Assembly: GCA_964016885.1 (NCBI GenBank)
Contig: OZ024742.1
Location: forward strand, 277,822,001-277,886,000
From: Eledone cirrhosa
Lineage: Eukaryota
Length of the DNA stretch: 64,000 nt
Direction of reading: 5' to 3'
In this document: positions 30,270 through 62,006 of the stretch, piece after piece
Layout of the letters: the number at the start of each line of letters is the position of its first letter
Numbering within the stretch: position 1 is the first letter of the stretch
Notes under the pieces: model-generated
What the model was told of the DNA's origin: nothing
The model's database searches: none
What the model saw: only the letters and a program-made list of their open reading frames with translations
Program-made: the position numbers and the translations under genes

Positions 30270-30453
30270 ATGGATTGGCAGTATAGGTAGAAGGTCGGAC
30301 GTCATGCTTTGACGCATAGAGTTACGGCCCTTGCCATTCTGTGTTCAAATCCCACCGAGGTTAAATTTGCCTTTCATCCTTACGGGGTCGATAAAATAAA
30401 GTACCAGTAATGTACTGGTTAATTGCTGGCCTTGTGCCAAAAGTAGAAACAAT
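30270..30453 (+). mobile_element. SINE (main family)
   Basis: Same head, core and tail as 12235-12426. Confidence 0.8.
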
Positions 30454-30472
30454 TATATATATATATATATAT

Positions 30473-33400
30473 CATCATCATCATCATCGTTTAACGTCTA
30501 TCTTCCACGTTAGCATGGGTTTAGACGGGAATTGTCCCACTAGAGGCAAGATTGGCTGTTTTGCTCGTATAGGACTGTATGGCAGGTTTTCTACGGCTGG
30601 ATACCTTTCCTAACACCAACCACGTTTACAGTGTTGACTGGGAGGTTTTTACCGTGTTACCTACACGGCCATATTACGGCGTGGACGGTGTGTTTTTTTG
30701 TCGTGACACCTACACGACCTCATTCATTTAGGACTGGATGTTGTGGTACCAACATAACTTTACAGAGAAAGGGGTGGTGTAGATGGGGGTGGGGTAGGGG
30801 TAGAGGGATGGGGGTGAATTTTTGGTTACGAGGTGCCTACTGACTGTAGGTTTCGCTTTGTACTTAGACAAGGTGAGTCTTCTGTATTACTGCGTAGCGC
30901 CAAAGATCTCGGTCCAGTGACATTGTCTTGGAGAGGTGTAAGTGTGTAAGGTCGGAATTTATCAAATCGTCCCAGGTTTTTCTGGGTCTGCCTACTCCGT
31001 AGCTTCCACCAATTTTGATCGCCCTGCACTTTTTTATACAGCTGTCGTCTTTCATGCGCATCATGTGACCATACCAACGTAGTCTTCTCTCGAGTAAACA
31101 TCACCTGATCCCTCTTATTCCTAATTTCTCACTTAGTTCATTTATGCTTTGCCGTTTGCGTATATTACTATTACACATCCAATGGAGCATGGAAGCTTCG
31201 TTCCTCTCCAGTCTGTGAAGATCCTCTGCACACAATGCCCATGTATCACTGCTATGTAACATTGCTGTTCGTGTGCAGGCATCATACAGTCTGCCTTTCA
31301 TTTTTAGAGAGAAACCTTTAGCGACTAATAGTAGTATAAGCTCTCTGAACTTTTTCTATCCCGTTCTGGCTCTGGCTACTGTACTTTCAGAGCACCCTCC
31401 ACCACTGCTGATTTTGTCACCCAGGTAACGGAAGGTCTCCACTATTTCTATAGAACCATCTGGGCTATGGAAGGAGCTAGTATCCTGTGGGCACTTGCTA
31501 CTACTTATTGCACCTGAGCACCGGCCACATATAAAATCTATGTTCTTAGTTAGCTTACCTGTGATCCCACTACATATTTTATGCACCCATACTTTGCATT
31601 TGGGACATAAAATGGAATTTCTGCCTACTCCTTTCCTACACACTGAGCATGGCCATTTCCCAGTGCCCTATTTTCCTTCCTACATACTAGAACTTCAGTC
31701 TTAGACTAGCTAATTTTAAGGCCTTTTGATTCTAGGCCATGCTTCCATATTTGGAATTTCTTCTCTAGTTCAGCCATTGATTCAGCTATGAGCGTTAGAT
31801 CACCTGCATATAGAAGTTCCCATGGGCAGCCGGTCTTGAACTCCTCTGTTATAGCCTGAAGGGCAATAATAAATAGGAGGGGGCTAAGGACAGAGCCCTA
31901 ATGAACACCAACTTTTACGCTAAATTCTTCACTATATTCGTTGTTAATTCTAACCTTGCTGACTATTTCTTTATACATGACTTGTAGAGCTCTCACAAGC
32001 CATTCATCAACACCTAGTTTTCTAAGAGCCCACCAGATAATGGAGCGGGGGACTCTTTCAAAGGCTTTCTCCAAGTCAACAAAAGCTAAGTATAGGGGTT
32101 TACTTTTAGCTATGTACTTCTGTAGTTGTACAAGGAAAAGAGCGTCTGTGGTACCTTTTACCTGACACAAACCCAAACTGCATTTCATCTAGATCAATTC
32201 GCACTCTGATTAGTTGCGCTATAACTCTTTCTGTGACCTTCATGACCTGGTCAATTAATTTAATGCCTCTATAGTTTCCCCTATCTAGGGCATCTCCTTT
32301 ACCCTTGTAGCAGTTAATGATGATGTTGCTACGCCAGTGATTTGGTATGACCCCATTCTGTATGACTTGGCTTACTATCCGGGTGACCATAGTGTGTCCC
32401 ACCGATCCAGATGCTTTCAGCATTTCAGCAACTATCTTCGAAGGCCCAGCTGCTTTGCCTGACTTCATGTCTTTGATTGCCTTACTTATTATACTACCTT
32501 CAACTTGCACTGCTGGTCCCTCTATTGGATCGATTTGGGGCAGACTATCTTTTTCCGACTTATTCACCTCATTTAGTAGCCTCTCGTAGTGACACTTCCA
32601 AGCTACCTTCTTATCAGTATCAGTGATGGCAAGTATACCATCATCATTACGGACACACTTTTCCCCGACAATATCACGGTTTTCCTTGACACATTGTCTA
32701 GCAATCCTGAACACCTCACATTTTTGGTCCTCGCGTTGTAGAACATGCTTGAACTTTCTTTCCTCTGCTTACCTTCTTGCAAAGTACACTTGTATCCTAG
32801 CTTCCCTCCTGGCCACTTGATAGTGTTCTCTACTTCCCCCATCCCACCATACTTTCCAAGCTTGCTTTTTGGCCTTAATTAACTCCTCCACCTTACTGTT
32901 CCACCACCATGTTACTCTCTTCCTGCCTATAGGTCTGTTCCAGCCACAGATTTCATCTGTCGCTCGCCTTAAGCAGGTTAACTTACAGGAATTCCCACTG
33001 TTCCTCTATACTGTACGTCTCTAATTGCTCTTCCTTACTGTCAAAAGCATCAAGTAATATGCTTTTAAATTTGTTACTGGTTGTGGGGTCCTTTAACTTC
33101 CATATTATTCTTCTCAGGGTAGTCCTCCTCTGTTGTCGAGTACGTCTCGTACTGACTATGGGGTCACTAACTATAAGTCTATGTTGGGAGGTGCATTCTT
33201 CACGGGGAGGGATTTAGTGTTTACAACAGACTTTGTCTCGTCTTCTGGTAAGGATATAATCTATCTGACTGGTGTGTTCCCCTGATCTATAGGTGATCAA
33301 GTGATTGTCTCGTTTTTTGAAGTTTGTGTTACAGATAGTTAGGTTATTAGCGTCACAGAATTCCAGGATTCTGAAGCCTTCCTCATTTCTGGTACCAAAC

Positions 33401-37330: not shown

Positions 37331-38560
37331 TAAAATGTTTCTTCCCATATGGATTAGGACAATGGGATTGATGAGTTAATATCTGTATACAACAACTACA
37401 GCGGTACGCGATGGGGCCCACCCACAGCCCCGGCGGACAGAATGGAGAAGGCCTTTCCCCGGAGGACGGCAAGGGAGACGCGCTGGAAAAGCCACTCCAA
37501 CTCGCGGGGCTCACACCTGCGGCTGGCCAGCTCAGCGCCTATGGTGGTGAGTAAGGAGGTAGCCTTGGGGCCGAGGACACCAGAGATCTCCAATGCCAGG
37601 GGTACGACCGCAAACCTGTCGGAGAGCGACCGGTATTTGAGGAGTTTATCCCCCTCAGCCGGACGTGCAGCAGAACCTGGGTCAGTCGCAGACTGCACCA
37701 GGTTGCGGCTGCAGAAAGTGTCGGTGCAAGTGGCATCCCAGACGAGGGGTTTGCCACCGCGGAACGGGAAGATGGTCATGTCATCTGGCCTTTTACCGTC
37801 CCCTCGATCCAGCCCCACCGACTCGAGCTGGGAAGGGAAGCCTGCAGCATCCAAGCCCTGCTTAATGACTTCGTTGAGGGCAGTATGGCGTGGAATGCGG
37901 CCGGCACTGTGGCGACATGAAAGCGGGTGGAGGCCGAAAGAGTCGACGGTGGAACCGCAGCGACATTGGTGTGGTTGGCAGATCCGGAGGCTGAGCCTCA
38001 GGGAAACGCCAATTCGCAGGCTATGGATGTCTAGCTGCGTGCCAGTGGAGAAGGAGGGCAGGTCATGGATCCAGGCACCACTGTGGGGTTTGGAGGCCGC
38101 ACGAAAACAAAGCAAGGCGGTGCTGGTCGAGCTGGCGCGTGAGCCTGTCTGAGGCCAGGCTACACTGGATGGCATCCCAATTGCGTTCGGGGACTTGACG
38201 TCAACAGGAGGAGGAGGAGGGACGTCTACTGGGCTAAGTCCCAGCCGGTCCCACGTCTCACAGGCGGCCTCATGTTCTCTGAACACAGAGGGTTCTGTTG
38301 TGTTTTGAAGAACCCCGCTGATGAGGATGCCGCACGAGGTTACCGACGAAAGATACGCCGGCAAAGCTAGTAAGATCGGGGACCGGAGGCCAAGGCCGCC
38401 ATTCCTGACAGGTAAAGTGGCCTGTTGCCACCCTATGCCGTCAAACTTCACGTTGCATACCCCCTCGGCTGGTGCTCGGATACAAGTATCGAGGTCAGCG
38501 AGGAGAGATGTCTGGGTGTAGCACGGAGCGCTGCGGAGTGTATAGAGGAGCTTCGGCATA
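37326..38560 (-). mobile_element. CRE-like non-LTR retrotransposon, 5'-truncated (RT thumb + zinc finger + PD-(D/E)xK-type endonuclease)
   Basis: PKLLYTLRSAP, QATLPVRNGGLG, SGAW, CRCG...HPLSC...PRH, KRPD..IFP..GK.LVWDATC, QRVSLAVLRG; short 3'UTR ending in (TA)n. Confidence 0.85.
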
Positions 38561-38720
38561 TAAAACGGAAGATGTCTGTCTGTGTGTGTGTATGATTTTT
38601 ATGCATTTCTACATTTTTCCATCCGATTTCGATGGGTTTTTTCCAATGTGCTCTAAATTTACCAACGATGGTCAACGCGTAATAACTTTTGCCAAACATT
38701 TCCTGCTTCTATGAAAAAAA
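38556..38720 (+). mobile_element. Helitron-like 5' fragment directly adjoining the CRE-like element
   Basis: ATATAAAACGGAAGATGTCTGTCTGTGTGTG...CATCCGATTTCGATG, resembling the start at 36836. Confidence 0.4.
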
Positions 38721-40367: not shown

Positions 40368-40666
40368 TTTATATATAAAATTAGGAAAATTAACAAAGAG
40401 AAAACAATGAACGAAAATAGTGCAGAACGAAAGACAAACATTTTTAATGGGGGATCCTGAAAAGCAATTGTTTTTGAAAATATAAACGCAAACAAAAGAC
40501 TCAGAACTTGAAGGACTTTGGCAATTTAGACCTTTACTGTGGGTACTGCTGGTCCACCCGGGTCTCAGCGCCTGACACAAGCCAGAGCGTTGTCAGTGGA
40601 GTAAATAAAATGTCACATTGATGTTTAAGGCTTGATTGTTGTTCTAATTAAACCGTGGTCAGCCAG

Positions 40667-41536
40667 TAATAATAATTGTTTCTACTTTTGGCACAAGGCC
40701 ATCAAATATCCAGTACATTACTGGTACTTTATTTTATCGACCCCGTAAGGATGAAAGGCAAAGTTGACCTCGGCGAGATTTGAACTCAGAATGGAAAGGG
40801 CCGTAACTCTATGCGTCAGAACATGACGTCCGACCCTCTACCGATACTGCCAATTCACAGCCAGTATTAATAATTGTTTCTACTTTTGGCACAAGGCCAG
40901 CAATTATCACAGTGTATTACTGGTACTTTATTTTATCGACCCTGTAAGGATGAAAGGCAAAGTTAACCTCGGCGGCATTTGAACTCAGATCATAAAGGGA
41001 GGTAACCCTATGCTTCAAAGCATGGCGTCCGACCCTCTACCGATACTGCCAATCCATGGTTTCTGATATAGACACAAGGCCAGTAATTTTGGGAGGAAAG
41101 GAAAGTCGATAAATCGACCCTAGTGCGTAACTGGTACTTTATTTTATCGACCCCGTAAGGATGAGAGGCAAAGATAACCTCGGCTTGATTTAAAATCAGA
41201 ACGTAAAGAGCCGTAACTCTATGCCGCGAGCATGTATTTTGACGCTCTTCCAATTCTGCCAATCCAGGTCAAACTTCGAACAACATTCATCATAGATCTG
41301 CTCAATGAAGTTTTGACGTGGGGATAACCCCCCCCCCCCCAAAAAAAAACCATCACAACAAAATAATTGTTTCTACTTTTCGCGCAAGACCAGCAATTAT
41401 CTCAGTGAATCACTGGTACTTTATTTTATCGACTTCGTAAGGATGAAAGGCAAAGTAAACCTCTGCGGGATTTGAACTCAGTTCATAAAGGGCCGTTGCA
41501 AATCATGGCGTCCGACCCTCTACTGATACTGCCAAT
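40667..41536 (-). mobile_element. Cluster of four same-orientation SINEs (~40667-40862, 40866-41057, 41060-41265, 41362-41536)
   Basis: Four repeats of CTGGTACTTTATTTTATCGAC...GGATGAAAGGCAAAG...TGCCAAT. Confidence 0.88.
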
Positions 41537-43377: not shown

Positions 43378-45829
43378 CCCATGGTGGAGGCGCGACGTGG
43401 CAACAAGTCCACAATTCGGTCTTTGTTCTGATCAAAACGGGCGCATGTGGCTCGAACCCGAGCAGATGTTTGCGGCTTTTCAACAGCACTTTGCTCAATT
43501 GTTCGGGAGCGGCGGCGGGCCGGATCGGAGTATGGACTTCGGTGCATACATCGACGGACTGTAAATCGCCAGGTTTGGATGGTCTGCCCTACGAGCTTTA
43601 TGCGTATATGCCAGACATGTTCGGTGACCTCTTGGCAGATGTCTACTGCAATTGGCAGCAGAGGGGAGCATTCCCAGTTTTGTGAGCCGGGGAGCGGTGG
43701 CGCTGCTGAGAAAAGACCCGAACAAGGGGGACGTTATAGACAACTTCAGGCCCATAACTCTGCTAAACGCAGAGTTTAAGATTTTGGCCAAGGTGTTAGC
43801 AAAGATTTGGCGCTTGTCGTCGGTGATCTGGTGGGAGAGGCGCAGATATGCACCATTCCGGATTGATCCATCCACGACAACCTCCATCTCATGCGATACA
43901 TCATAGAGAGGGTGGTTAAGGAACCTGGCTCAGGTGGGGCCCTGATCAACTTGGATCAATCTAAAGCATTTGATAGGGTCGACCATCGGTACCTGGCTGC
44001 GGTCCTCGAGGCGGCCGGCTTCGGGCCCGTTTTTAGGGGCTGGATCGCTGCGATGCACAGCGGCATCTGCTCGATTGTGAGGGTAAATGGTCACCTGTGG
44101 CAGCCGTTCAGCATCATGCGCTTGTTCCGACAGGGTTGCTCCCTCTCATCCCTCTTGTATGTACTGGCCCTCGAGCCGTTACTGCACAAATTGGAGAAGA
44201 TGCGGGGGTCCCACGCGAACTGGGATGCGGAAGATCCGTGTCAGCTTACGCCAACCACGTCACCGTGGTGGTGTCGAGCACCAAACACGTCCAGATGCTC
44301 GGCACCGCTCTCAAGGAATACGAAGCGGTGACAGGAGCAAAGATAAACCAGGAAAAGTCGGTAGGCTTGCAGCTCGGCACCTGGAGAGGAAAGTCCATGC
44401 GGTCCGACAGCGTCGTGGCGCGCTGGACGAAAGGACCAGTTAAATTACTCGGGGTCTGGTTGGGTCCGGACCTCCAGATGGAGAACAACTGGAGCGAGGT
44501 CACGAGCAGGGTAGCCTCTCTCACCCAGAAATGGGCCGAGAGCAGGATGTTTCTGAAAGGTCGGGCGGAGGTAGTGAATGCGTACATAGCGTCCGTCATC
44601 TGCTACCGCCTGACCGTCGTACCTTGCCCCCGCCCAACTCTGACCAAAATCGCTTTTTGTGGAAGGGACGGGCTCCCATGGTCAGACTATCCATTTGCTG
44701 TCAACACCCGTTGCGTGGAGGACTAGGCATGCCGTGGCTGATGATGCGCAAACAAGCGCTGAGGCTACGATATCTCTGGTGCTTCCTTGACGGAGAACAG
44801 GTGTGGTCGCGGTTTGCCAGACGCGCGTTTTCCCAGCTCGTCTCCTTGACGGAGCTGCAGTCCTGGATCAGGAAGAGACCGAGAGATAGCGCTTGGAAGC
44901 TGGAATGTCTCCAAGCGCTCACCACCCTCTACCAGCTGGGCACTACTATCGGTGGGACATGCACCTCGGCGTTCTATAGAGGGCTAGTGGAGGGAAAGAG
45001 CGACGACGTTCTCGGGGAGACTCTGGGCGTCGAAGATTCCAGCTGTTCGCTCTCTTTAAGAGAACTTTGAGACCGGGACCTATGGACAACTTCCAGAATC
45101 CCTGGCCTGGCAGTGCTACCGGGGAGCGTTGCCGGTTCTGGATAAGTTCTACAGGCAAGGAGGTGCTGTCAGCCAAGCCTGTCCGAGATGCGCGCAGGGT
45201 GACGAAACCGTCCTGCACGCACTCGTTCAGTGCCCGAGGATTGCTGACTTGTGGAGCTATGTCGAACAGCTGCTGTCGCGTGTAGGACGGATCCGGTTAT
45301 CGACTGAGTCCATTGCGCAGATAGCCCCGCCCGCTTCCTTTAAAGTGGAGGAAGGGCAGGCAGTTTTCATCTGTCTGGTGGCCATGGCGAAAGAGATTGT
45401 GTGGTGGACAAGGTTGAAAGGGTTGAAGACACTTTCCTCTTCGGCCAATCCCAGATTAACTTATTCAAGTTCATTTGAAGAGGAAAATCAGGGTGGTGAG
45501 GCAAGTGTTGTCTTCTAGTAAGTTTGTTGAAAGGTGGGTGAAAGTGGCGAGTCTGGTCCGAGTGAACGGGCCCGCTCTGAGTAGACTGAGGAGTGGGAAA
45601 AGTGAGAGAGGGCGCTTGCCCTGGTAGTCAGGGCGGCCGTGGAAATTGTGTGACCCTCGGAGGTTTCCCCCTTTTTTGTGAATTTTTGTTGTTTGAATTT
45701 TTTGGGGATTTCTAGCCCAATTTTGTTATAACCTGTTTACACGGCCAAAACCCACTTTGTATCGTCCTGTACCGTCCTGTGCCGTCTGTAATGTTTTTCT
45801 TGATGTCAGCCCTTGTGGCCGATAAAGAA

Positions 45830-45830
<1 letters not shown>
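43378..45830 (+). mobile_element. Tx1-like LINE copy C: 5'-truncated, degenerate RT + CCHC
   Basis: KSPGLDGLPYE, NFRPITLLN, DQSKAFDRVDH, CPRCAQGDETVLHALVQC; 3' end GCCCTTGTGGCCGATAAAGAAA then (TTA)n at 45831-45865. Confidence 0.92.
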
Positions 45831-45865
<35 letters not shown>

Positions 45866-48492
45866 GTTCTTTGAGTCTCAGTCATTGATGTTAGTTAACT
45901 GGAAAGTTTGTTGATATGAATATCAAGCCACTACCTGCAGCCTCAGATATTCAGGACGTATCGGAGGGTTCTTGCTGTTCCCAGCAAGCATGCCTTTTGA
46001 AGTGTTCCAAAAAGCGGGGCGAGACCAATTTTCTTTAACCATCCCTGGAAACTCTTTGAGATAGTACCTAGTGCGCCTATGACAATCGGGACCACTTTGA
46101 CCCCATGGCAGTTCCAAATCCTTTTCACCTCCCACCTTTAAGTCCTGGTATCGGTTAATTTTCTCCATCTCCTTCTCTTGCACTCTCGTGTCGAATGGGC
46201 AGGCTACATCCACAATCAGGCACGATCTTTTTCACTTGTCCAAAACTACCAGGTCAGGTCTATTGTGTTCCAGTTTCTTGTCCGTCTGTATCCTAAAATC
46301 CCACAGCACCTTCACCTGATCGTTTTCCATTGCCGACTCTGGCTTATGCTCATACCACTTTTCAAAATGTGGTAAATTGTTTACTTTTCATAGGTGCCAG
46401 TGGATCACCCTGCCCATCACATCATGTCTCCAGCCCTTATAGTGAGTCTGGCTAGGTGTTTACACTCGGATACAATGTGAGCCACAGTCTCCTCTCTCTC
46501 TCTCCACAGATCCTGCACAGTGGGCTAGCCTCCTCCTTGTAAATATGGTGTTTCAGCCACTTCGTTTTGAGGGCCTGCTCTTGCGCAGCCATTAGCATTC
46601 CTTCTGTAGCCTTTTTAAGGTCTCCTCTATTCAACCAGTTCCATGTCTGTGGATATCTAAATTCAGTTTTCTCAAAGAAGGTACTATGAAGGGATTTTTC
46701 ATGAAGGTTGCTCATTCTCCTTGATATTTCTTCCTTGGACATCTGCTGGTCTATTGTCCTCTCCTTCAGTAAAATTCTGAGCATTGGCTCCTTACTATCA
46801 GTCACGTATTTGTGTAGGTTGTTTTTCGCCATCTGAACACAGTCCTCTATGCTGATAAGACCTCTTCCACCTCCAGATCTCCTTAAGTAGAGTCTATCGA
46901 CATCACTCCTCTCGTGGAACATGTTGTAGATAGTCAATAGCTTCCTAGTCTTCCTATCCATTTCTTTTTGTTCAGCAACATTGCATCTAAGAATTCCCGC
47001 ACTGTACCTAATAATAGACACAGCTCGGGAATTTACTGCACTTATGGCATTCCTACTGTTCAGATGTGACTTTAATACGCTCCTTACTCTCCGAATGTAT
47101 TCAGATCTTATCAATTCCTTCATTTTTTTGTTCTTGATGTCATCAGCCTCCAGAACACCTAAATATTTGTATCCTTCTTCAGTATCAATTTCCTTTATCA
47201 TCTCACCTGTTGGTACCTGGATTCCGTTGCTTCTGCTCAATTTACCCCTCTTCATCACAAGGACTCCACACTTACTAATACCAAATTGCATACATATATC
47301 ATTGCTGAAAATACGGACAGTGTCAACAAGCACATCCAACTCCTTCTCACTCTTCCCAAAGAGTTTAAGATCGTCCATGAAGAGGAGGTGGTTGATGGTA
47401 AGCTCTCCCTTTCCCAACTTGTATCCTGCTCTCACTTTTCGCAGTATAATGGTCAGGGGATCAGGGCAAGGACAAACAACAGAAGGGACAAACTATTTCC
47501 CTGGAAGATACCTCTCTTGATCCTCACGCAACCCAAGAATCATCCGCCCGATGTTAACTCTGTTTTCCAGGACTTCATACTTTTGCTCAACAACTGTCTG
47601 ATGTTATCTGCCACCCTGAAGATCTCTAGGCTTTTGGTTATCCAAGAATGAGGTACCATGTCGAATGCCTTTTTGTAGTCTATCCATCCCATGGCAAGAC
47701 CAGTGTGTCTCCTCCTGCAATTCCTCATTACCATCTTATCAATAAGTAACTGGTCCTTTGTACCACGGGACTTCTTTCGGCATCCTTTCTGTTCGTCCGG
47801 TAACAAGTTGTTTATGTGGAGGTGATAGTAGATTTCCTAAGGCACAATGCTTGTTAACAGTTTCCACATTACGGACAGACATGTGATAGATCTATAGTTG
47901 GTAACATCATAACCCTTGGTTCGGTCTTTCATTACCAGAACTGTGGTACCTTTTGTCAACCACTCTGGTACCTCACCTGACATCAAGCAGTCATTGAACA
48001 TGTTTGTCAGTTTCGGGTTGAGGGATCTTATATTTTTAATCCAATACCCCTGCACACCATCTGGGCCTGGTGATTTCCAGTTGGTTAGTTTTCTGGCCTG
48101 CCCCTGAAGAGTTTCAATTGTGATACTCAAATCAGTTTGTTGGTGAGCCTGTTCACTAATCTCCTTTTGTACTGTCTCAATCCACACTGCCTGATAATTA
48201 TGTTTAACATTCTGCTCCCATATTCCTCTCCAGAATGTCTGAGTTTGTTCCGCCTCAGGGATAAAGTCGTTGCCTCTTTCTTTCCCTTCAAGCTGTCCAA
48301 ACAACATCTTCTGGTTGTTGTCAAACATGCGGTTCTGTCTATACTGACTGACTCTGTTCTCGTATCGCCTGATTTTTGCACTCTTTGCTACAATGCGTTG
48401 CTTCAGTTCCTCTATGATAATATTTAGCTTTTTCCTCCCAGTTTTGTACTTTATTTCCAGTCTATTTTTAGTGTCTATGTTTTGTAGTGTCC

Positions 48493-48493
<1 letters not shown>
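45866..48493 (-). mobile_element. R4/Dong-like REL-endonuclease retrotransposon, 5'-truncated, degenerate
   Basis: [109 protein letters not shown]; (TAA)n on both sides. Confidence 0.9.
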
Positions 48494-48532
<39 letters not shown>

Positions 48533-51500
48533 GAGTCTGAACGGACGTCTTTTTGCTCGCTCTCGTAAGTTTATTTATTTACCTGTCAAAACTTATTTAT
48601 TGAATTTTGTTGTTGTTGTGTAAGGCATACAAGCCCTTGGACTTTGCCCTGTGAAGGGGAAAGTATAATATTTGGGCCTTTTGGCCCAAATATTTGAACT
48701 TTTATACATTTAAAAGAATTATCGAGAAAAAAAAATAAAAAAAAACATGGCTGAGCCCCCCCCCCCCCCCCCTCCGCGATATGTCTGCTGTCGGGCGACA
48801 ACGACGTAGAAGTTGAGAGAAGCGCTACTACGGCGAAATTAACAGAAATTGATACAACAAACACCACCACAAACAACGTGAACAAAGACAGAAATGATAA
48901 CAACACTGAGAACTCTAATTTTGAATAAAATGACAGTAACAGCGACAACCAAAATACAGATAACAGAAAAAATGACAACAAATGCAACAACAATATCAAC
49001 GCCACTAACATGGAAACAAATAGCGACAACAGCAACAATACCAACTGCACCGACAACAACGGCGGCACCAAAGAAAACAATGATAACAGCAACAACACCA
49101 ACAAGAACAACAACAACAACAACACCACCAACAAGAAGAACACTTTCGCTAAGGCAGCAGCCAAAAAGGGGCCATGCTTCAACATGGACCTCTCAAATAA
49201 AGATGAAAAGTTGTCCCAGGCCTGGAAGCTCATCAAGCAAGAGCAAACCTGGGCCAACTTAACTGTCCCGGTAGAAGCTATTGAGGCAGTGGAGCGCAGA
49301 ACGGTACATTATAGATGCATCTCAGCACAAACCAAAAGGGCAGCTTTAATTCCACAAACAGATGTCAAAGTCGCGCTGAGGTGCATCAGAGATGACACCG
49401 ACTACATAGCGAGGGGCAGACAATACGGCACCATTTCGGTGTTGTTTAAGTCAGAAGCCCCTGCTATGAAACACGCTATGACACCTTGCACAACCAGCAA
49501 GGTATAAATTACCCCTCCCACATGGGAAAAAAAACGGCCCCTCTCCGCATTCCCAGAATCCCAACAGGACTTGACATGTGGTGGCTTCTGGGATGTGTGA
49601 TAGTGGAGGTGATGGATACCGTCCCGATAGAAGTGACAAGAACTGCCAGAGAGGACTGGTCCAGGGTGGACTTGGAGATACTTCTCCAGATCAGGCCGGT
49701 GAATGTGAAGACAATCCCGGACCACATCCGCCTTCAGAATGGGACGGTCATTCATATTATGACCGAGGACAAAAGGCTGCATTGTTTTGTTTGTGGGGAA
49801 AAAACCCATTTGCGAGCCTTCTGCCCTCAACGTTTGAAGGATGTAAGAGGTCGAAGGGCTCCACTGCTGCCGACGCCGGGGCGAGGACTGCAACCAACAC
49901 CAGCACCGGAGATACGAGACAGCTTTCCTCGGGACGTGGGAACCCCGAACGTAAAACCCACTTCAAGACTTTTAAAGGGTTTCCCAAAAGAAACCCCACC
50001 AACTATGGAGGTCGAACCACCCGACCTTCACAAGAGCCCGGAAGGTAAGTAAACCTTTCCTCTCTCTGTTTTAGCCTGCCAACATGGCCGTATTAAGAGT
50101 AGAAAGTTTAAATGTTCGAGGCCTGGGATCGTCCTGGAAGCAGGGTCACCTGCTCAACGACCTCAGGTCTCTAGAGATGGATGTAATTGCCGCCAGCGAG
50201 ACCAGGATTTCCGACACGCGCGTACTAGCCCCCATTTTCGACGACTATCAGATCTTTGCATCTGTTAGTCGGCCAGGAATGGGAGGTGGGGTGGCAGTGC
50301 TGTTTAGAAAAGGCCTGGATATCGAGGTAAGGTCGATCTTCCGGGACCCGGACGGGAAGTTGGTGGTCCTGGACGTGAACAATAACGAAGGTGGTGCCTT
50401 TAGACTGGTGGCCGTCTACGCCCTTACCGGGGAAGGACGGCCGGACTTCTTTAGACGCCTGGATGCCTTTCTTGGTACGTCTCGCCCTTTACTGTTAGCG
50501 TGGGACTGGAACGGCATCTTAGACGCACGCTGGGACTGTGTGGGAGTATCCGATAGGAGCGGGGGGTGCAAAAGCCTCAAGTACCTGATCAACCAGTTCC
50601 AACTGTCTGACAGGTACCGACTAGATTTCCCCAATGCACCAGTGTGGACTTAGACTAACTGCATAGGGTCATCTAGATCGTATATAGACAGGATATTCAT
50701 TAGGAAAATAGACAGAAATAGTGTAAGCTGTCCACGTTTTAAAACGGTCGTCTATTCAGATCACAAGTTTGTGATCTGTATGGTCGACCTAGATAAGACG
50801 CGTAGGTTAGGACCTGGTTACTGGAAGCTGAACATGTCATTTCCGGCACGTAAGGCTTACAGGGAGCAGGTCAACAATTTAGTTAAGAAAACGTTGACAG
50901 GGGTTGTCGTCAACAATAGATGGTGGGGGCCTCTCAAAAGAGAGATTAGAGTAATGTCGATAGAGTTTAGTAAAGAAGTAGCGTTAGAGAAAAATAGAAA
51001 GGAGGGGGAGTTGGTAGATAAGTTAGACGAGGCTATTTGTAGTGGCATTGCAACTAATGTGCTAGCGGCGAGAATGGCATTAGACCATTTCTTCAATGCG
51101 AAACACGAAGGTTGCATTGTCAGAGCTAAGGCGCGTGCTCTGAGAAACGAGGAAACCAAAGCTGTTCGATGGGCCCGCGTGGAAGAGGCGCAGCGTGGTA
51201 ATAAAACCACGATTAGGTCTTTGACGGATCGAGATGGACACGAGCTGAACGATTCCAAACGGATGTGTGAGGCCTTTCGCCAACATTTTGTTCGGTTATT
51301 CGGGGGAAGTGGCGGGTCAGAGACGGTGGCGGAATTCAGTCCCTACCTCGATGGCTTGCCGCAACTCTCGACGGCCGACGCTGGGCGCTGCGAAAGTCCG
51401 ATTACTTCAGCCGAGATTCAGGATGCCCTTGTCGGCCGCATGAGGCGCAAGTCACCTGGTTTGGATGGTCTGCCCTACGAGCTTTACGTAAATATGCCAG

Positions 51501-52020
51501 ACTTGTTCTCCAATCTCCAAGAAGCGCTCTACTGCAACTGGCAGCAGAACGGGAGTATTCCCAGTTCTGTGAGCCGGGGTGTAGTGACGCTGATAAGGAA
51601 AGACGAGATCAAGAGGGACACATTAGACAATTTCAGGCACATAACTCTGCTCAACACAGAGTTTAAGATTTTGGCCAGGGTGTTAGCGAAGAGGTTGGCG
51701 CTTGTCGTCGGGGATTTGGTTGGGGAGGCGCAAACTTGCGCAATCCCAACCAGGTCCATATACGACAACCTCCGTCTGATGCGATACGTCATAGAGATGG
51801 TAGGGTGTAAACCTGGCTTCGGTGGCGCTCTGATCAATTTAGATCAATCGAAAGCATTCGATAGGGTCGACCATCGGTACCTGGAGGCTGTCCTCAAGGC
51901 GGCTGGCTTCTACCCCGTATTCTGAAGCTGGATCGCTGCAATGCACTGCGGCACCTGCTCGGTGGTCAAAATTAATGGCCACCTCACGTAACCGTTTCAG
52001 GTCTCCCGACCGGTCCATCA
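48533..52020 (+). mobile_element. Tx1-like LINE copy D: 5'UTR + ORF1 + APE + first half of RT, 3'-truncated
   Basis: Begins right after (ATT)n 48494-48532; ORF1 CFVCGEKTHLRAFC; ORF2 from 50084 SLNVRGL, ASET, AVYA, DWN, SDH, YWKLN, KSPGLDG; breaks at the QG motif. Confidence 0.92.
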
Positions 52021-55000
52021 AGGACCGTCCAAACCAGGCGATTTACCCCTCGTGCAATTAGCCATCGCTTCCCGTATTTCACCGGCTGTTATTGGCTTTT
52101 CCCAACACTGTGCTGCGGTCGTCGAGAGCCGAGGCAGTCCGTCGAGGTATGCACTGAAGTCCATACCCGATCCGGCCCGCCGCTGCTCCCGAACAGTTCA
52201 GCAAATAGCTGCTGAAAAGCATCACACATCTGCTCGAGTTCGAGTAACACGCGCCCGTTTTGGTCAGATAAAGACCGAATTGTGGCTTTGTTGCCACGTC
52301 GCGCCTCTGCCACCCGGGCCCATTGGACGGCTTTTGTCCCCTCGTGTTTCAGAGCACGCGCTCTAGCTCTGACAACGCAGCCTCGTGTTTTCCGTTGAAG
52401 AATTGGTCGAGTGCCAATCTCGCCGCAAGCACGTCGGTTGCGATGCCTGTCCTAAACGCCTCTTCTAGCTTTCTGACTAGCTCTCCCTCTACTCTATTTC
52501 CCTCTATCACTAGTCCTTTGCTAAACCTAATCGACTCTACTTTAATTGCCCTTTTCAAGGGGAACCACCACCTATTGTTGACGACCGCTCCGTCAACGCC
52601 CGCTTAACTAATACGCTAATCCGGTCTCTGTAGGTTTTGAGCGCTGGGAAAGACGCGTTCAGCTTCCAGTAACCGGGTCCTTGTCTATGAAGTCTGTCTA
52701 TGTCGATCTCAAAGATCACAAATTTGTGGTCTGTGTAGTCGACTATTTTAAATTGTGGACAACTTATACTAGCCTTATCTAGTTCTCTGCAGAATACCCT
52801 ATCGAGATACGATCTGGATGACCCCATGCGGTTTGTCCATGTCCACATTGGCACATTCGGGTGATCCAGTCGATACCTGTCAGACAGTTCAAAACGTCTG
52901 AGCAGGTTGGTGAGGCTCTTGCACCCTCCTCCCCTATCCACTAGCCACACACATCCCAGCGTGCGTCCAAGATATCGTTCCAGTCGCCCACTAACACTAA
53001 AGAGCGGGACATTCCAAGAAAGGTCTCTAGACGTCTGAAGAAATCTGGCCGTCCTGTCCCTGTCGGGGCATAGACGGCTACTAGCCTGAAAGCGTTGCCT
53101 TCGGTGCCGCTTACGTCCAGCACCACCGACTTACCTTCTGGGTCCAGGAAGATGGTCCGTATGGCGAGACCCAAACCTTTCCGAAACAACACGGACGGCT
53201 CAGAGATGCGTACACCTCGTAACCGTCGAAGATCGGTGCGAAAGCTTGTGTTTCGGAGATTCTCGTCTCGCTGGTGGCCACCACATCCATGTTTAGTGAC
53301 CTGATGTCGTTAAACAAGTGAGCCTGCTTCCAAACCGAGCTCAAGCCACACACGTTTACACTTCCGATCCTGAATACGGCCATGTTGGGAGAGGAACGGG
53401 GCAAGTGAGAAAGGATCACTTACCTTGATCGTCTGGTGAAGGGACCGTTGAATCGTCCCTTTGGCTGGTCGTCGGCTCTTCTGTGAGTATATCCGAGTAT
53501 ACTCTCCGGTTGAGTGTCCCTCCTAGGTCTCTGAAATCACCAACTGCGTTGAGGAAATTCATTTTAATGTTTGTATATTGTTTCTGTGATATTTTTACCA
53601 GTCTTATGTTCGTTCGTGTTTTGATTGGTGCTGGTATTATGTAGTCGTGCTGTGAAATATGTTTTCAATTATTTAAGTCATTAGTTTCTTATTGTGTGTA
53701 TTTATTGCTGAGTATTTCTTTTTCTGGGGGTGATGTGGGGTTCTGCTATTTTCTTGTCGTTGTTGCTGGGTGTGTTGTTTTATTGTTGTGTTTGCGATGT
53801 TGGTGCTTGTGCTGGTGTTGTTGAAAAGTTGTCGTTGTTGGCGGTGGGGTTGCCGCCGGCGGTGATGGTAGTGCTAGTGTGGATGGTGATGGTGTTGGTG
53901 GTGTTGCTGCTGTAAGTCTCTTTGCAGTAGCCTTCACCCTTTTTTCATTTCTTCCCTCCCTTTTCGAAGGCGACGATGCGCTGCTTCTGCGTTTGTGCCT
54001 TCTTGCGACCTTTTGCCATCCCTCTCCCACCTCACACTCCATGTCCGATTCTGTGAGGTCGGGGAGGGGTACCAGCCCCACTTTTTCACTTGTTCTTGTT
54101 GGTGATGGTTGCAGTGGAGTCTCTGTTGCAGATGCAGTTGGTATTACTGTTGTTGTTGTTAATACTTCCACTGCTGCTGCTGTTCTTGATTTCCGTGGTG
54201 TGGGTATGGGTGCCACGGACCTATTCTTCCTGCTTGCCGCCTGTCCTGTTCCTGGTAGCAGTGGAGCCGGTTTCGGAAGGAGGGGGTCCTCCTTTCTCGG
54301 GGTCTTCTCATTGCAGAAGGCCCTGGGGTGAGTCTTCGACCCACAGCGATCTTTTCAGGCGTTTGCCATCAACACTTATGGGAAGTTGAGTGCCGTTATC
54401 GAAGTCTATCACATCCGAGATAGCTTCGATGCACTCCTGGTTGGTTTGAATTAACATCTCAATGGAGGCGCCGACCCAATCTTCTCGTACTTTTTTCTGT
54501 ACTTGCAGTACGGTTGTTTTGTCCTCGAATCCAACGAGGACAGACGCGGCCAGCCAAGAAGGGGCCATCCCGGGTGCTGGGAGGTGTGACTTGGGTCAGT
54601 TTGACCCTCACAATTTTTTGCCTTCAGTCGGAGGGCACCAACGCCATTTCCTCGTGCCTTAGGGTTACTAAGGATTGAGCCTTCGCCTTCTGGGGTGTAG
54701 AAAAAAGCACGTACACGGTGGCATATTTCTTGCCTCGGGTGATATGCTTTTTCCGCTGCCACACCGACCCTAAGGCTTTTTGTATTTGAGCCTCTGTGGC
54801 TCTTTCAACCCTACGTGATTTTGTGCTTACTGTACGGTACGTGACCGTACAGTGCTGTTGGGTTTCGAAAAATTCTTCGGCTGCCTTGCAGTTGCTCGTT
54901 GTCCGGTTTTCGTCACCATCTTCCTTGCTTCCTGTAATTCCTCATTTGTTATAAGGATGGTTTCCAGCTTCTTTGCGATACCTGCAAACGCGATTGGTTT

Positions 55001-55050
55001 TTCTTTCTTGTTGTTGTTATCATCAGAGTCAATAGGTACAGAAGGGAGGA
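52021..55050 (-). mobile_element. Tx1-like segment E (inverted): ORF1 + APE + pre-RT linker up to KSPGLDG
   Basis: Minus-strand ORF1 pieces (AFAGIAKK, RTVTYR, LPISVDG); ORF2 start MAVFRIGSVNV at 53383; AVYAP, GDWN, TDH, YWKLN. Confidence 0.9.
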
Positions 55051-57190
55051 GAGATTTCATGATTTTTGCCAAGGTGTTAGCAACGAGATTGGCGCGTGTC
55101 TTCAAGGGTCTGGTGGGAGAGGCGCAGACATGCGACATTCCGGACAGATCCATACACGACAACCTCCACCTCATGCGATATATGATAGAGAGGGTTGTTA
55201 AGGAACCTGGCACGGGTGGGGCCTTGATCAACTTGGATCAATCCAAACCATTCTATAGGGTCGACCATCGGTACCTGGCGGCGGTCCTCGAGGTAGCCGG
55301 TTTCGGGCCCGTTTTCAGGGGTTGGATTGCTGAGATGTACAGCGACATCTGCTCAGTTGTGAGGGTGAACGGTCACCTGTCGCAGCCGTTCAGCATCATG
55401 CGTTCGGTCCGCCAGGGTTGTCCCCTCTCGTCCCTCTTGTACGTATTGGCTCTCGAGCCGTTACAGCACAAACTGGGGGCGACGAGAGGCGTCCCACGCG
55501 AACTAGGATGCGGGAAATCCGAGTCGGCTTACGCCGACGACGTCACCGTGGTGGTATCAGACACGTCCAGAAGCTCAGAACCGCTCTCAAGGAATACGAA
55601 GCGGTGACAGGAGCAAAAATAAACCAGGAAAAGTCGGTGGGCTTGCAGCTCGGCACCTGGATAGGCAAGTCCATGCCGTCTGACAGCGTCATGGGGCGTT
55701 GGAGGGACGCAACGGTTAAATTGCTCAGGGTCTGGTTCGGACCGGACCTCCAGATGGACAAAAACTGGAGCGAAGTGACGATCAAGGTGGCCTACCTCAC
55801 CCAGAAATGGGCCGAGAGGAAGCTGTCCCTGAGAGGCCGGGCGGAGATGGCGAATGCGTAAATCGCATCCCTCATCTGCTACCGCCTCACTGTCGTCTCT
55901 TGCCCCGGCTCAACTGTCACTAAAATGGAGCATCTCTTCTTCCGCTTTTTGTGGAAGGGACGCGCTCCCATGGTCAGATAATCCCTCTGCTGTCAACACC
56001 CGTTGGGTGGAGGACTGGGCATGCCATGTCTGATGATGCGCAAACATGCGTTGGGGCTGCGACATCTCTGGTGCTACCTTGATGGTGAACAGGTCTGGTC
56101 GCCGTTCGCCAGGCACCTTTTCCCACAGCTCGTCTCCTTGACGGAGCTGCATTCCTGGGTCAGGAAAAGACCGAGAGATAGCGCTTGGAAACTGGAATTC
56201 TCCAGGCGCTCACTGCTCTCTGCCAGCTGGGCACCAGTATCGGTGGAACATCCAGCTCGGCATTCTATAGAGGACTAGTGGAGGGGAAGAGCGACGACGT
56301 TCTCGGAGAGATCCTGGGCGTCGAAGAAGATCAGCTGTTTGCTCTCTTCAGGAGAACTTTCAGCCCAGGGCCTATGGATAACTTCCAAAAATCCCTGGCC
56401 TGGTAGTGCTACCGGGGAGCTCTGCCGGTTCGAGATAAGCTCTACAGGCATGAAGTGCCGTCAGCCGAGCCTGTCCGAGATGCGCGCAGGGCGACGAAAC
56501 CGTCGTGCACGCACTCGTTCAGTGCTCGAGCATTGCTGACTTGTGGAGCTATGTCGAACAGTTGCTGTCGCGTGTAGGACTGATCCGGTTATCGACTGAG
56601 TCCATTGTGCAGATGCTCTCGCCGTTGTCCTTCGAGGAGGAAGGGCAGGAGGTTTTCATCTGCCTGGTGGCCATGGCGAAAGAGATTGTGTGGTGGACAA
56701 GATTGAAAGGGTTAAAGACAGACACTTTCCTCTTCAGCGAATCCCTAATTAACTTTTTCAAGTTTCACTTGAAGAGGAAAATCAGGGTGGAGAGGGAAGT
56801 GCTGCCTTCTAGCAAGTTTGTTGAAATGTAGGTGAATGTAGCGAGAATGGTCCAAGTGAACGGGACCGCTCTGAATATGTCTGTAGTTTGAGAAATGGAA
56901 AAGTTGAGAGAGGGCGCTTGCCCTGGTGGTCAGGGTGGCGGTGGTCTTTTGTGTGGTTTTCGCCACGAGTAACCCTCGGAGGCCCCCCCCCCCCATATTG
57001 GGGAATTTTTCATTGTTTCAATTTTCATTTTTATTGTTTATATATATATATGTTTCTATGTCTTCTTTTTCTTTCTTATATAAATAATAAAAATCTTTAC
57101 ACGCACAAAACCAACATCGTACCGTCCTGTACGGTCCTGTGCCACCTGTAATGTTTTTCTTGAAATCAGCCCTTGTGGCCAATAAAGAAA
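55051..57190 (+). mobile_element. Tx1-like segment F: RT + CCHC + 3'UTR
   Basis: IFAKVLA.RL, RQGCPLS, AYADDV; 3' end GCCCTTGTGGCCAATAAAGAAA then (ATT)n at 57193-57222. Confidence 0.92.
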
Positions 57191-57222
57191 TCATTATTAT
57201 CATTATTATTATTATTATTATT

Positions 57223-60200
57223 GGCGACCTACGTAGGAAATCGTATTATCGTGAGCTCCGCAAAGGTTTGTTATTTTCAGTTGTTTCAAATTGCCATTTA
57301 TGGAAAATTTTTGTTGTTAAGTGTTTATAAGTTCACATATATTGCTTTCGGAAAGGACACTCAAAAAGATTGGGGCCTTGAGCCCAAAATTTAAACTTTT
57401 ATAAATATCAAACAAAAAATTTCTTTGAAAAAATCATGGACGACTCACAGCCACACCAGGCTGACAGCCTTCCTCACAAACTAACACCTCACGCGAACAC
57501 CACCATTGTAAATATTACTACGTTTGCCAACACTAAAAATATAAGCAGTAGCAATAATTTAAATTTGTCTCATGCAGACATTCATTTCCCGCCATTACCA
57601 AAAACTGCAGGTGTTAAAGCCGCTCCCCCCACCACCACAGCGACAACAGAAACAAAAGAAAAAAATAAATTATTATCTCGTGACATCGAAATGGATTCAC
57701 CCAGAATCGACTCTTCCACACCGAACACCACTGACGCCACCACCACCACAACTGAAACTAAAAATAACAATAACAAAAATAACAATAACAACAACAGCAA
57801 TAACAACAATGAGAATAACAACAAAAACACCAACACCACCGCAAATGTGTCGTTTGCCAAAGCAGCCAAGAAATGTGAAACAATCGAGGTAACTCAGGAG
57901 GAATTAAATGAAGCCAAGAGAATGGTAAAGATAGATGGGTACAGGGTCAGCCTCACCCCCCACCTATGCACCGTGTCTTATCGGACGATTAACACAAAAT
58001 CGCACCCAGTGGAACGGGTATCCGAGTCCCAAATCCCAAAAGCTTTGGGACATGTGTGGGCGAAAAAAACCTACATCAGACGTGGGCAGAAATATGGAAC
58101 CGTGGACGTGTTCTTTGGAACACCACAAGAGGCCAGAGAGCACCCCATGTCTCCATTAAGAAGCGACGACTTCACACTCGTCCCAAGCTATTGTGGCCAG
58201 AGACTCATGAAGATCAGGGTGACCCACGTTCCACTGGCCATCGAAATTCTCTGGCTAATGGCGGCCGTCCTCGCCGGCATCGAGGCCAACACCAAAATAA
58301 TTGAAAAATCAAAAGAAAAGCAGGAGAACTGGTCCGGATCTGGGATGGAGCTCCTGATCCAAGCGGACCAAAAAAGCATTGAGGAAATCCCAGAGGTAAT
58401 AGACCTCACTGACGGCAGCCACCTCACAGTAATCGTCGAGGGCAGAAGTCCTAGGTGTGTCGTTTGTGATGAAGGAACCCACCTAAAGGCTTTCTGCCCT
58501 CAGGCTAAAAGGTTGAGGCCACCTCTCTTACCCACCCCAGTGACTCAACCATCAACACCACCAGCAGCAGAAATGGCAGCAACAACTGTAGCAGCAACAA
58601 CAGAAGCAACTGTAGCAGCAACAACCCCAGCAACAGTAGGAAAATCAACACCACCACCACCCACCGCGCCAGAACTAGCACCAGCACCTCCACCATCCAC
58701 CACACCACAAACCAAAGCCTGTGGAGGATTTTCCACTCCCCGACCTATCGCAACTGGAGACAGATCGTGACGACGAGGAGTGGGAAACTGTATCAGGGAA
58801 AAAGAAAAAAAGAAAAAGAAGACAAAAAAGAAAAACATTCTCTTCCTTCCCCCTCCAAAAACAAAATACAGAGGGAAACAAATAAACTATCAAACAACAA
58901 AGTTTGGACAGCTATGCCACCATCCCCACCAGCATCACCAACCCCATCACCACAAACACCAACACCATCACCATCATTAACCCCAACACTACCATCACCA
59001 ATACCACAAAAGTCACCAAAAAGCGAAACAGAAACAAACCCACAACAAACGCAAACAAAACAAAACAACCAAAACGATACACACTACACGGCATTAAATT
59101 TGAACAACAAGCAATTATTACATTACATCCAACACAACACCAGCATCACAGAAAAAGACTACACAACACCCAAAAGTTCACACCACCTCCACACATACAA
59201 ATCACTCGCATCACAAAGAAAACGTACACGACACTAAAACAAAAATTCCCCAAAGACATCGGAGACTTCCGACAAGCATTCTCCAGGCGGATTTATAAGG
59301 ACATCATTCCGGAGGAGGCCACAAGCAGTGAAAAGGATGGAGAAACCATCTTTCGTCTACGAGAAGTAAGGTAAGTGGTCTTTCCCATCTTTTCCACTCC
59401 TTTTCAACATGACCTCACTCAGAATAGACAGCATAAATGCGCATGGCTTGGGGTCGTCATGGAAGCAGGGCCACCTGCTCAACGACATCAGGTCACTAAA
59501 CATAGATGTAGTGGCCATCAGCGAGACCAGAATCTCTGAAGCACGGGCCTTCGTACCGATCTTCGGCGGCTACGTTGTGTACGCATCTCCCAGCCGTCCT
59601 GGATCGGGGGAGGAGTTGCTGTGCTTTTTCGGAGAAGTTTGGATCTCGCCATACGGGCCATCTTCCTGGACCCAGAAGGTAAGTTGGTGGTGCTGGACGT
59701 GACCAGCGGAGACGGGCAAGCTTTCAGGCTAGTGGCCATCTATGCCCCGACAGGAGCAGGGCGGCCTGATTTCTTCCGGCGTCTAGAGACCTTTTTTGGA
59801 ACGTCCCTCTCTTTAGTGTTAGTGGGTGACTGGAACGGGATCTAAGATGCACGCTAGGACTGTGTGGAATTAGCGGATAGAGGAGGAGGGTGCAAGAGCC
59901 TCACCAACCTGCTCAGGCGTTTTGAACTGTCTGACAGGTACTGATTGGATTTCCCGAATGTGCCAATGTGGACTTGGACAAACAGTATCGGGTCATCCAG
60001 ATCATATCTAGATAGAGTATTTTGTAGGGAAATAGATAGGTCTAGCATAGGCTGTCCACAATTCAAGATAGTCAGCTACACGGACCACTAATTCGTGATC
60101 TGTGTGGTTGACTTAGATAGGCTTCATAGACAAGGACCCGGCTACTGGAAGTTAAACGCGTCCTTACCAGCGCGCAAGACCTACAGAGACCGGATTAGCG

Positions 60201-62006
60201 AACTAGTTAAGCGGGCGTTGACGGGGGCCATCGTCAACAACAAGTGGTGGTTTGCTCTGAAAAGGGCGATTAGAATAGAGTCCATTAGGTTTAGTAAGGC
60301 TTTAGCCATAGAGAAAAATAGAGCAGAGGGAGAACTAGTTAGAAAATTAGACGAGGCGTTTAGCAAAGGCATCGCGACCGACGTACTTGCGGCGAAATTG
60401 GCCCTTGACCAATTCTTCAATGCAAAGCACGAAGGCTGCGTTGTCAGAGCTAGGGTGGGTGCTCTCAGACACGAGGGGACGAAAGCCGTTGAATGAGCCC
60501 GAGTGGCGGAGGCGCGTCGTGGCAACAAAGCCGCGGTCCGGTCTTTGGTGGACCACGACGGGCGCATGCTACTCAATCCCGGGAAAATGTGTGAAGATTT
60601 TCAGCGACACTTCGCTCAGCTGTTCGGGGGCAGCGGCGGGCCGGATCGAGGGATGGACTTTAGTATCTACCTTGACGGACTGCTGCGGCTCTCGGCCACT
60701 GCGGCGGAGTGTTGCGAAAAGCCGATAACAGCCGTTGAAGTACGGGAGGCTATGACTGGCTGCACAAGCGGTAAATCGCCTGGTTTGGATGGTCTGACCT
60801 TTGAACGTTATGTGCAGACGTCAGACTTGTTGGGAGGCCTCTTGGCGGACGTCTACTGCAACTGGCAACAGAACGGGAGAATTTCCCAGCTCTGTGAGCT
60901 GAGGAGCGGTGGCGCTGCTGAGAAAGGATCCGAACAAAGGGGATAACATAGATAAATTCAGGCCCATAACTCTGCTAAACAAGGAGTTCAAGATTTTGGC
61001 CAAGGTGCTAGCAAAGAGGTTGGCGCTTGTCGTTGGTGATTTGGTGGGAGAGTGGCAGACATGCGCCATTCCCGACAGATCCATCCACGACAACCTGCAC
61101 CTTATGCGATACATCGTGGAGAGGGTAGCTAGGGAACCTGGCACGAGTGGGTCCTAGATCAATTTAGATCAGTCGAAAGCTTTGGATAGGGTCGACCATC
61201 GTTACCTAGCGGCACTCCTGAGGGCGGCTGGCTTTGGGCCCGTCTTCAGAGGCTGGATCGCTGCCATGCACAGCGACATCTGCTCTGTGGCGAGAGTGAA
61301 CGGTCACCTTTCGGAACCGTTCAACATCATGCGCTCGGTCTGCCAAGGATGTCCCCTCTCGTCCCTCTTGTACGTATTGACTCTCGAACCATTACTGCAC
61401 AAACTGGAGACGTTGAGGGGGGTCCTGCCCGAACTAGGATGAAGAAGATCCGTGTCAGCATATGCGGACGATGTCACCGTAGTCGTGTCGAACGCCAAAC
61501 GCATCGAGGCGATCGGCACTACACTAAGAGAATACGAAGCGGTGACAGAAGCAATGATCAACCAGGAAAAGTCAGTGGGCCTGCAGCTCGGCACCTGGAG
61601 AGACAGGTCCATGCCGTCCAACAGCGTCGTCGGACGCTGGACGGACGGACCGGTTAAATTGCTAGGGGTCTGGTTCGGATCAGACCTCCAGACGGACAAA
61701 AACTGGTACGAGGTGACGAGCTGGGTGGCTTCTCTCAGCCAGAAATGGGCGGAGAGGAAGCTATCCCTGAAAGGTCGAGCGGAGGTGGCGAACGCGTACA
61801 TCGCGTCCGTCATCTACTACCGCCTGACCGTCGTACCTTGTCCTAAGCCTCGCCTGACTGCGCTGGAGCGTTTGCTCTTTCGCTTTTTGTGAAAGAGACG
61901 CGTTCCAATGGTCAGGCGGTCCATCTGCTGTCAACACCCACTACGTTGAGGGCTGGGCATGCCGTGGCTGATGATGCGCAGACACGCGCTCAGGCTACGA
62001 CATCTC
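57223..62006 (+). mobile_element. Tx1-like LINE copy G: 5'UTR, ORF1, APE, RT; 3'-truncated, degenerate
   Basis: ORF1 57436-59374 (one frameshift; CVVCDEGTHLKAFC); ORF2 from 59409 with APE and RT motifs (AYADDV); ends abruptly after HALRLRHL. Confidence 0.92.
57436..58770 (+). pseudogene. Tx1-like ORF1, longest open piece (444 aa)
   Basis: Poly-Asn, SFA motif, folded middle region, CX2CX4HX4C knuckle, Pro/Thr-rich tail; continues in another frame to 59374. Confidence 0.85.

Follow-up and report, generated by a model that had tools for sequence, protein, structure and literature searches.

Evidence that a Dong-like RLE-type retrotransposon and Tx1-type LINEs share an (ATT)n target in Eledone cirrhosa

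Introduction

In a 64,000-nucleotide stretch of the Eledone cirrhosa genome (contig OZ024742.1; hereafter the window), an element of the RLE endonuclease class lies between two Tx1-type LINEs of the APE class, on the opposite strand and with an ATT tract at each of its ends. The locus raises the question of whether two endonuclease classes use one trinucleotide repeat as their target, and whether their proximity calls for anything beyond that repeat. We consider it likely that the Dong-like RLE elements and the Tx1 APE elements each insert independently in (ATT/AAT)n by target-primed reverse transcription on opposite strands, and that their adjacency is a by-product of a shared, self-renewing target.

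Results and discussion

Layout of the locus

The original prediction placed an RLE-type element on the minus strand between two Tx1 copies and two ATT tracts. This layout, which reads Tx1 C (+), (ATT)12, RLE-type element (−), (ATT)13 and Tx1 D (+), was borne out by coordinates, motifs and domains (Table 1). Tx1 C retains ORF2 from the RT to the C-terminal zinc finger together with the 3' UTR, its 5' half being missing, and its predicted stem-loop immediately precedes an AATAAA-like signal. The (ATT)12 tract is common to the tail of Tx1 C and the (AAT)n tail of the RLE element, and (ATT)13 separates the 5' junction of the RLE element from the 5' end of Tx1 D, whose first base is 48533. Tx1 D has a full 5' end, a broken ORF1, an APE domain from about 50075 and the start of the RT (matches to Exo_endo_phos at E 2e-8 and to RVT_1); its 3' half is missing and it ends at 52024 without a tail. 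The two tracts are among only four in the window with at least four units. Since tracts of at least three units occupy 0.35% of 1 Mb of random genome, the flanking tracts are not due to chance.

Table 1 Features of the locus, with positions in the window unless a locus is named
Feature	Position	Strand	Basis
Tx1 C, APE-type (Tx1-like) LINE represented by its 3' part	43381..45829	+	tblastn with P0223/P0224, zf-RVT, junction, divergence
Predicted 3'-terminal stem-loop in Tx1 C, 3-bp stem, 5-nt loop	45809..45819	+	stem and loop conservation
(ATT)12 tract, 100% perfect	45830..45865	.	tail-to-tail junction
RLE-type non-LTR retrotransposon (Dong-like), 5'-truncated, broken	45866..48493	-	motifs, Pfam-type domains, tblastn to P0001
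(ATT)13 tract, 100% perfect	48494..48532	.	head-to-head junction
Tx1 D	48533..52024	+	domains, tblastn, junction; 5' end set by 29 relatives and 68 exact heads
Tx1 E/F, single element	52023..57192	.	9 nearest relatives of E continue into F-like sequence
(ATT)10 tract, 92% perfect	57193..57222	.	Tx1 F tail to Tx1 G head, RLE element absent
Tx1 G, full 5' end, broken off in ORF2 without tail	57223..62006	+	sequence comparison
SINE copies	40660-41536; 12236-12426; 30271-30456; also L164 9555-9738		

The RLE-type element and its target

The RLE copy in the window is 2,628 bp long. Aligned with the intact relative P0001, it covers residues 310-1158 at 60-72% identity and is broken into four frame pieces, with three frameshifts and five in-frame stops. 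The RT lies at about 46500-48490 and the CCHC finger and RLE at about 45946-46560, with an 80-bp 3' UTR; the motifs recognized were those of the RT, the CCHC finger, the RHD and PD..D..K (broken). Because full-length members of the family measure about 4.35 kb, the window copy is 5'-truncated. Its 5' join lands on an AAT of the element itself, which gives a 3-nt microhomology with the tract, and in two relatives (L002 and L094) an AAT is found just upstream of the equivalent point.

The family has a single ORF of about 1,130-1,160 aa. The CCHC finger, RHD and PD..D..K motifs were present in 46/46 intact aligned relatives and an N-terminal zinc finger in none of the 46, the corresponding part being missing from the window copy. 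RVT_1 was the only domain that Atlas returned for the family, and R2 proteins ranked first when the family profile was compared with the PDB, with the RLE domain aligned. On its motifs, the window element is to be regarded as an RLE-type (R2 group) non-LTR retrotransposon. The R4/Dong clade is characterized by a diverged N-terminal Myb/SANT domain, and a 5' HDV-like ribozyme has been demonstrated for Bombyx Dong. Rfam gave 23 weak matches to L104, L107 and L164 (two full-length 5' ends), none of them to a ribozyme family, in a search that can miss diverged ribozymes. With R4/Dong the family has in common the absence of an N-terminal zinc finger and a (TAA)n target in sense orientation at both ends, and the element appears Dong-like by architecture and target.

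In the 3.0 Gb of genome searched, 37 other copies were collected among the 39 closest matches; of the ten RLE matches without loci, eight were retrieved. At least three AAT units were present at 34/37 of the 3' ends. At least two AAT units lay directly upstream at 26 of the 34 readable 5' junctions and none at the remaining 8 (L029, L103 and L109 were unreadable), and most of the AAT-joined copies are truncated at different points. The expectation that other copies of the family would be flanked by (TAA)n was thus upheld, and these ends point to (AAT)n as the target of the family, as in Dong. Insertion of Dong-type R4-clade elements in TAA repeats is known (PMC7998251, PMC1635306, PMC3774820), and the RLE copies here are alike.

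Another RLE family (L207 4867-7900, L204, L149, L150 and L147), whose identity to P0001 is about 40%, has the same (AAT)n tail and polarity. At the RLE copy L101 (L025) the 5' flank is an inverted copy of the 3' flank, and two C1 loci have both flanks alike (L095/L110); these may be duplications or assembly oddities.

The Tx1-type lineage and its target

The Tx1-type elements have two ORFs, with APE, RT and a C-terminal zinc finger in ORF2, and gave Exo_endo_phos, RVT_1 and zf-RVT domains; L1-EN structures match the APE weakly (E 0.009). This architecture agrees with Tx1 and does not separate it from other L1-group clades, and the label Tx1, taken over from the original prediction, is assumed here from known features of the clade and the architecture.

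For the C and D families, 20 of 40 matches were extended. All 29 C-family 3' ends run into ATT. On the 5' side, at least three ATT units precede 27/29 D-family heads, 61/68 exact Tx1 D heads genome-wide directly follow ATTATT, and every intact head in the 20 C-family loci (10/10) and in the 20 D-RT loci (15/15) is likewise preceded by ATT. In a sister Tx1 lineage, 19/19 heads are placed behind (ATCT)n. The fractions 61/68, 27/29 and 19/19 lie above the 20% of flanks that marks target specificity in PMC4494074. The Tx1 lineage would thus target (ATT)n, read from the reverse side relative to the RLE element. Most broken 5' ends that were not located via a tract (about 7 of 8 examined) are without ATT, as is the 5' break of Tx1 C in the window, and these may be later breaks.

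The tail type (ATT or ATCT) splits a 71-row tree once (100/100; several rows are long and the root is a midpoint root). The hairpin loop of the endonuclease, which we take to be the stretch located by the motif W/F-T ... S-Y-I/L-D, reads I-G-S in the majority of the roughly 45 copies of the ATT lineage and S-G-T/Q in the 5/5 ATCT-lineage copies read, a correlation of loop and target that is weak because it is a single contrast on one split of the tree.

A pair of the sister lineage stands head to tail in the window at 22717-30261, in the order A, (TATC)22, B, (ATCT)13. A 353-aa frame at 13335-14393 (minus) with a weak zinc knuckle is 70% like the Tx1 E ORF1 region and represents a further Tx1 fragment. 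On C1, Tx1 tail motifs recur about 6.05 kb apart, up to five in succession, at 55.42-55.45, 56.17-56.18 and 63.97-63.99 Mb, which suggests head-to-tail arrays of full-length Tx1 copies.

Probable insertion from opposite strands

In target-primed reverse transcription the nicked strand has to pair with the RNA tail, and Tx1 would therefore use the AAT strand and the RLE element the ATT strand. The RLE element would prime from the (ATT)n strand, pairing with its own (AAU)n RNA tail, and Tx1 from the (AAT)n strand, pairing with its own (AUU)n tail. Every insertion would leave tract on both sides, turning one tract into two, so that nests could grow, and longer tails would be hit more often. A target-site duplication is unreadable within pure repeat. 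That APE and RLE endonucleases land on one trinucleotide repeat, as had been proposed for this locus, is supported by the flanks and by the opposite strands. Opposite orientation was found in 19/19 loci holding both element types, comprising 12/12 RLE loci that have Tx1 sequence no more than 1.5 kb away (one of which relies on low-complexity matches) and 7/7 Tx1 loci with RLE sequence.

A less probable alternative is that the RNA tail, and not the endonuclease, selects the site, nicking of AT-rich DNA by both enzymes being loose and only tail-paired primers leading to insertion; this would alter the step and not the outcome. The tail matches the target in each lineage, and nicking in vitro is looser than integration, with RNA-target pairing as a possible further filter (PMC1950540). 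However, the endonuclease hairpin loop affects L1 specificity (PMC1950540) and differs between the ATT and ATCT lineages, an argument that counts for little on one tree split.

Adjacency of Tx1 and RLE elements against the background

The background consisted of 100 random 10-kb stretches from 16 contigs, which hold 89 tracts of at least four units; the focal RLE and Tx1 sets are closest matches, not random draws. On their left, these 89 tracts adjoin 22 SINE tails, 10 Tx1 tails, 9 CR1-like tails and 8 RLE heads, and on their right 19 SINE heads, 12 RLE tails and 7 Tx1 heads; 49/89 carry a retroelement end. The original prediction that Tx1 and RLE elements adjoin more often than by chance held far beyond a random-position null (5/36, p 9e-10), but the frequency is not clearly above the proportion of ATT tracts that a Tx1 tail provides. 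A Tx1 tail stands behind the RLE tail in 6/32 copies against 10/89 background tracts (p 0.36), the 37 copies being reduced to 32 by dropping L110, whose flanks equal those of L008, and four copies with fewer than four tail units. From the Tx1 side an RLE neighbour is found in 7/29 against 12/89 (p 0.24), and at RLE heads a Tx1 neighbour in 3/26 against 7/89 (p 0.69). The sampled odds ratios are all above 1 (1.5-2.0), with wide intervals (0.5-6.4).

Exact junctions were also counted genome-wide with spacers of 2-5 units, a short-spacer range that favours SINEs, which gave 63 Tx1-RLE and 167 SINE-RLE junctions. Per tail of at least three units (6,755 Tx1 and 36,959 SINE), RLE ends follow Tx1 with an odds ratio of 2.07 relative to SINE (63/6755 vs 167/36959, p 4e-6), whereas the ratio falls to 0.54 per tail of at least six units (4,347 Tx1 and 6,322 SINE), a length reached by 64% of Tx1 tails and 17% of SINE tails. 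Because the ratio depends on the tail base in this way, tail length may account for the excess relative to SINEs. A special Tx1-RLE partnership was tested five ways and is unsupported, as the sampled rates are in line with the tract share and the excess reverses for long tails. The two element types share a target, and their adjacency is about as frequent as a shared landing repeat gives. It is thus the likely by-product of a target that is shared and renews itself.

It is unlikely that, among ATT tracts, the RLE element prefers those formed by Tx1 tails or lying in Tx1-rich regions. The sampled ratios above 1 and the genome-wide value of 2.07 make a slight preference, or clustering by region, conceivable, and besides the window two further Tx1-RLE-Tx1 sandwiches (L028/L102 and L013) occur among 36 RLE copies. 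However, the ratio of 0.54 for long tails runs the other way, no sampled test is significant, and the single rates by themselves predict about 0.7 sandwiches.

The idea that each insertion frees tract for the next one fits two findings, though a regional bias would match them as well: ATT tracts cluster (mean 0.89 and variance 1.9 per 10 kb, p 4e-10), and an element on one side of a tract makes a second on the far side commoner (27/49 vs 11/40, p 0.01). Two observations are not expected from plain sharing of tracts. Tx1 follows Tx1 more often than the background would give (9/29, p 0.004; 9/15, p 9e-5), and no RLE head preceded a Tx1 head in the focal sets (0/29 and 0/15) against 8/89 in the background.

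Tx1 might lack target specificity and merely produce (ATT)n tails that Dong-like elements use later, a reading that would agree with ATT at every Tx1 tail read and with the many broken 5' ends without ATT. It is nevertheless very improbable and largely refuted, since 61/68 exact heads are behind ATTATT, the tracts ahead of Tx1 heads have 3 to 27 units, and the sequence ahead of the tract is a SINE tail or unique DNA for most heads; truncated copies also begin right behind tracts (L037, L038, L040, L102, L147 and L214, all but L214 found via the tract). An assembly artefact or a composite unit duplicated as a block is hardly credible, for although simple repeats border every part, L008/L110 share flanks and the L025/L101 flanks are inverted, the three parts differ in age and the 63 exact Tx1-RLE junctions are spread over many contigs with varying spacer lengths and Tx1 subfamilies.

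Insertion order and the 19-kb block

Median non-CpG divergence, over 16, 20 and 18 loci respectively, was 0.078 for Tx1 C, 0.042 for Tx1 D and 0.035 for the RLE copy; the best RT-region or 3' matches were 93%, 97% and 97%, respectively. The higher divergence of Tx1 C makes it the oldest of the three, so that it was inserted first. Divergence does not place Tx1 D before or after the RLE copy, as their medians overlap and their relatives were selected by different routes. Dating the copies by divergence, which had been proposed together with the layout, thus succeeded for Tx1 C and gave D and the RLE copy no order. For the same reason the description of the RLE element as sitting in the spacer between two Tx1 copies stands for its flanks and fails for the order that it implies, Tx1 D and the RLE copy being of like age. 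The likely history is that C arrived first and that its tail tract then received the RLE copy and D, whichever of the two came earlier.

The block at 43.4-62.0 kb represents five insertions, E and F being one element. In most of the nine relatives of E, the sequence that follows is nearer to F than it is to either C or G. The 5' part of Tx1 E/F is inverted (52023-55050, minus) and the 3' part is forward (55052-57192), with about 187 bp absent between them, presumably the layout left by twin priming. Neither inner junction of Tx1 E/F has ATT, and it joins the Tx1 D RT region without a tract. ATT tracts are present at 3/7 block junctions, with none at the C 5' end, D/E, E/F and the G 3' end. With 4/7 junctions lacking ATT, the shared target was rejected as an explanation of the entire block; the suggestion that it explains about 19 kb of continuous retroelement sequence is right for the nest, which comes from the shared target, and wrong for the remainder, which comes from deletion or inversion.

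Relation to known systems

Dong (Bombyx mori), DongAg, DongBg and Rex6 belong to the (TAA)n-targeting R4/Dong clade (PMC7998251, PMC3774820, PMC1635306, PMC3812793), Dong being mislabelled as APE-type in PMC3812793, and Dong-R4 elements are abundant in Octopus vulgaris (PMC13282606). The RLE element here resembles them in its single RT and RLE ORF as well as in its lack of an N-terminal zinc finger and its sense-orientation target, and is nothing new. Related Tx1 lineages have different microsatellite targets, (TC)n for Kibi, (TTC)n for Koshi and (TTCC)n/(TTTC)n for crocodilian Tx1 families (PMC4494074); all are Tx1-clade APE LINEs in microsatellites, whereas the lineages here use (ATT)n and (ATCT)n, neither of which is named in the consulted sections of that paper. 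The consulted sections of PMC9115989, PMC4824008 and PMC3747384 name no target for Tx1 elements of octopus. A Tx1 family directed to (ATT)n was not found in the consulted sections of the literature searched; Repbase, Kojima and Fujiwara 2004 and the figure of targets in PMC4494074 may hold one.

An APE and an RLE element on one multicopy target are likewise known from Keno (Tx1 clade) and Utopia in U2 snRNA genes (PMC4640811), and from R1 and R2 in 28S rDNA. The U2 and 28S targets are genes with fixed sites, whereas the target here is a repeat that is read on opposite strands and would be renewed by each insertion. The new part is thus the repeat target of a Tx1-type element and not a partnership, Dong on TAA and microsatellite Tx1 being already known. 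With it (ATT)n and (ATCT)n join the target list of Tx1-type LINEs, and a close pair of Tx1 lineages with different repeats, together with an unrelated enzyme on the opposite strand, makes selection by enzyme or by tail testable. The shared target explains why about half of the sampled ATT tracts (49/89) carry retroelement ends, and bears on microsatellite markers and repeat annotation. The Tx1-RLE junction in the window is an ordinary outcome of a shared-target system, and a host function is not indicated.

SINEs and other users of the tract

A highly abundant SINE, with 36,959 exact tails genome-wide, is ATT-tailed like Tx1. Its head is tRNA-like (A and B boxes by eye), and its middle presumably resembles a Meta domain. 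The 5-nt loop of the 3' stem-loop is kept in 64/68 Tx1 ends and 141/145 SINE ends, and the three stem pairs are kept in 91-94% of ends, with two-sided changes between SINE and Tx1 and within Tx1. From the common 3' stem-loop and ATT tail we infer a putative Tx1-SINE partnership. In crocodilians, SINEU shares the target of Tx1-Mar and is thought to be mobilised by it (PMC4494074); the SINE here differs in having a tRNA-like head and a 3' stem-loop and ATT tail in common with Tx1.

A wider reading, for and against which we are evenly balanced, is that Tx1 converged on the repeat of Dong from the opposite strand, switched between (ATT)n and (ATCT)n as its endonuclease hairpin loop changed, and drives the SINE through the 3' stem-loop. 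Tx1, the SINE and the two RLE families would then be a self-seeding guild that lands mainly in the tails of its own members, giving multi-kb nests of fixed polarity.

A LINE 3' end with an (ATT)n tail, assumed from its motifs to be CR1-like, lies in L153 (minus) at about 7270-8168, and a CR1-like tail was seen at 9/89 sampled tracts. Elsewhere in the window, open frames of 400 and 220 aa (37399-38598 and 32109-32768, minus) have no Pfam match at E 0.01. The window further contains a 350-bp tandem duplication (5000-5701), a (TA)706 repeat (6086-7491), a (TGGTGGTGA)55 repeat (11251-11745) and a 288-bp near-palindrome of 93% (17344-17631).
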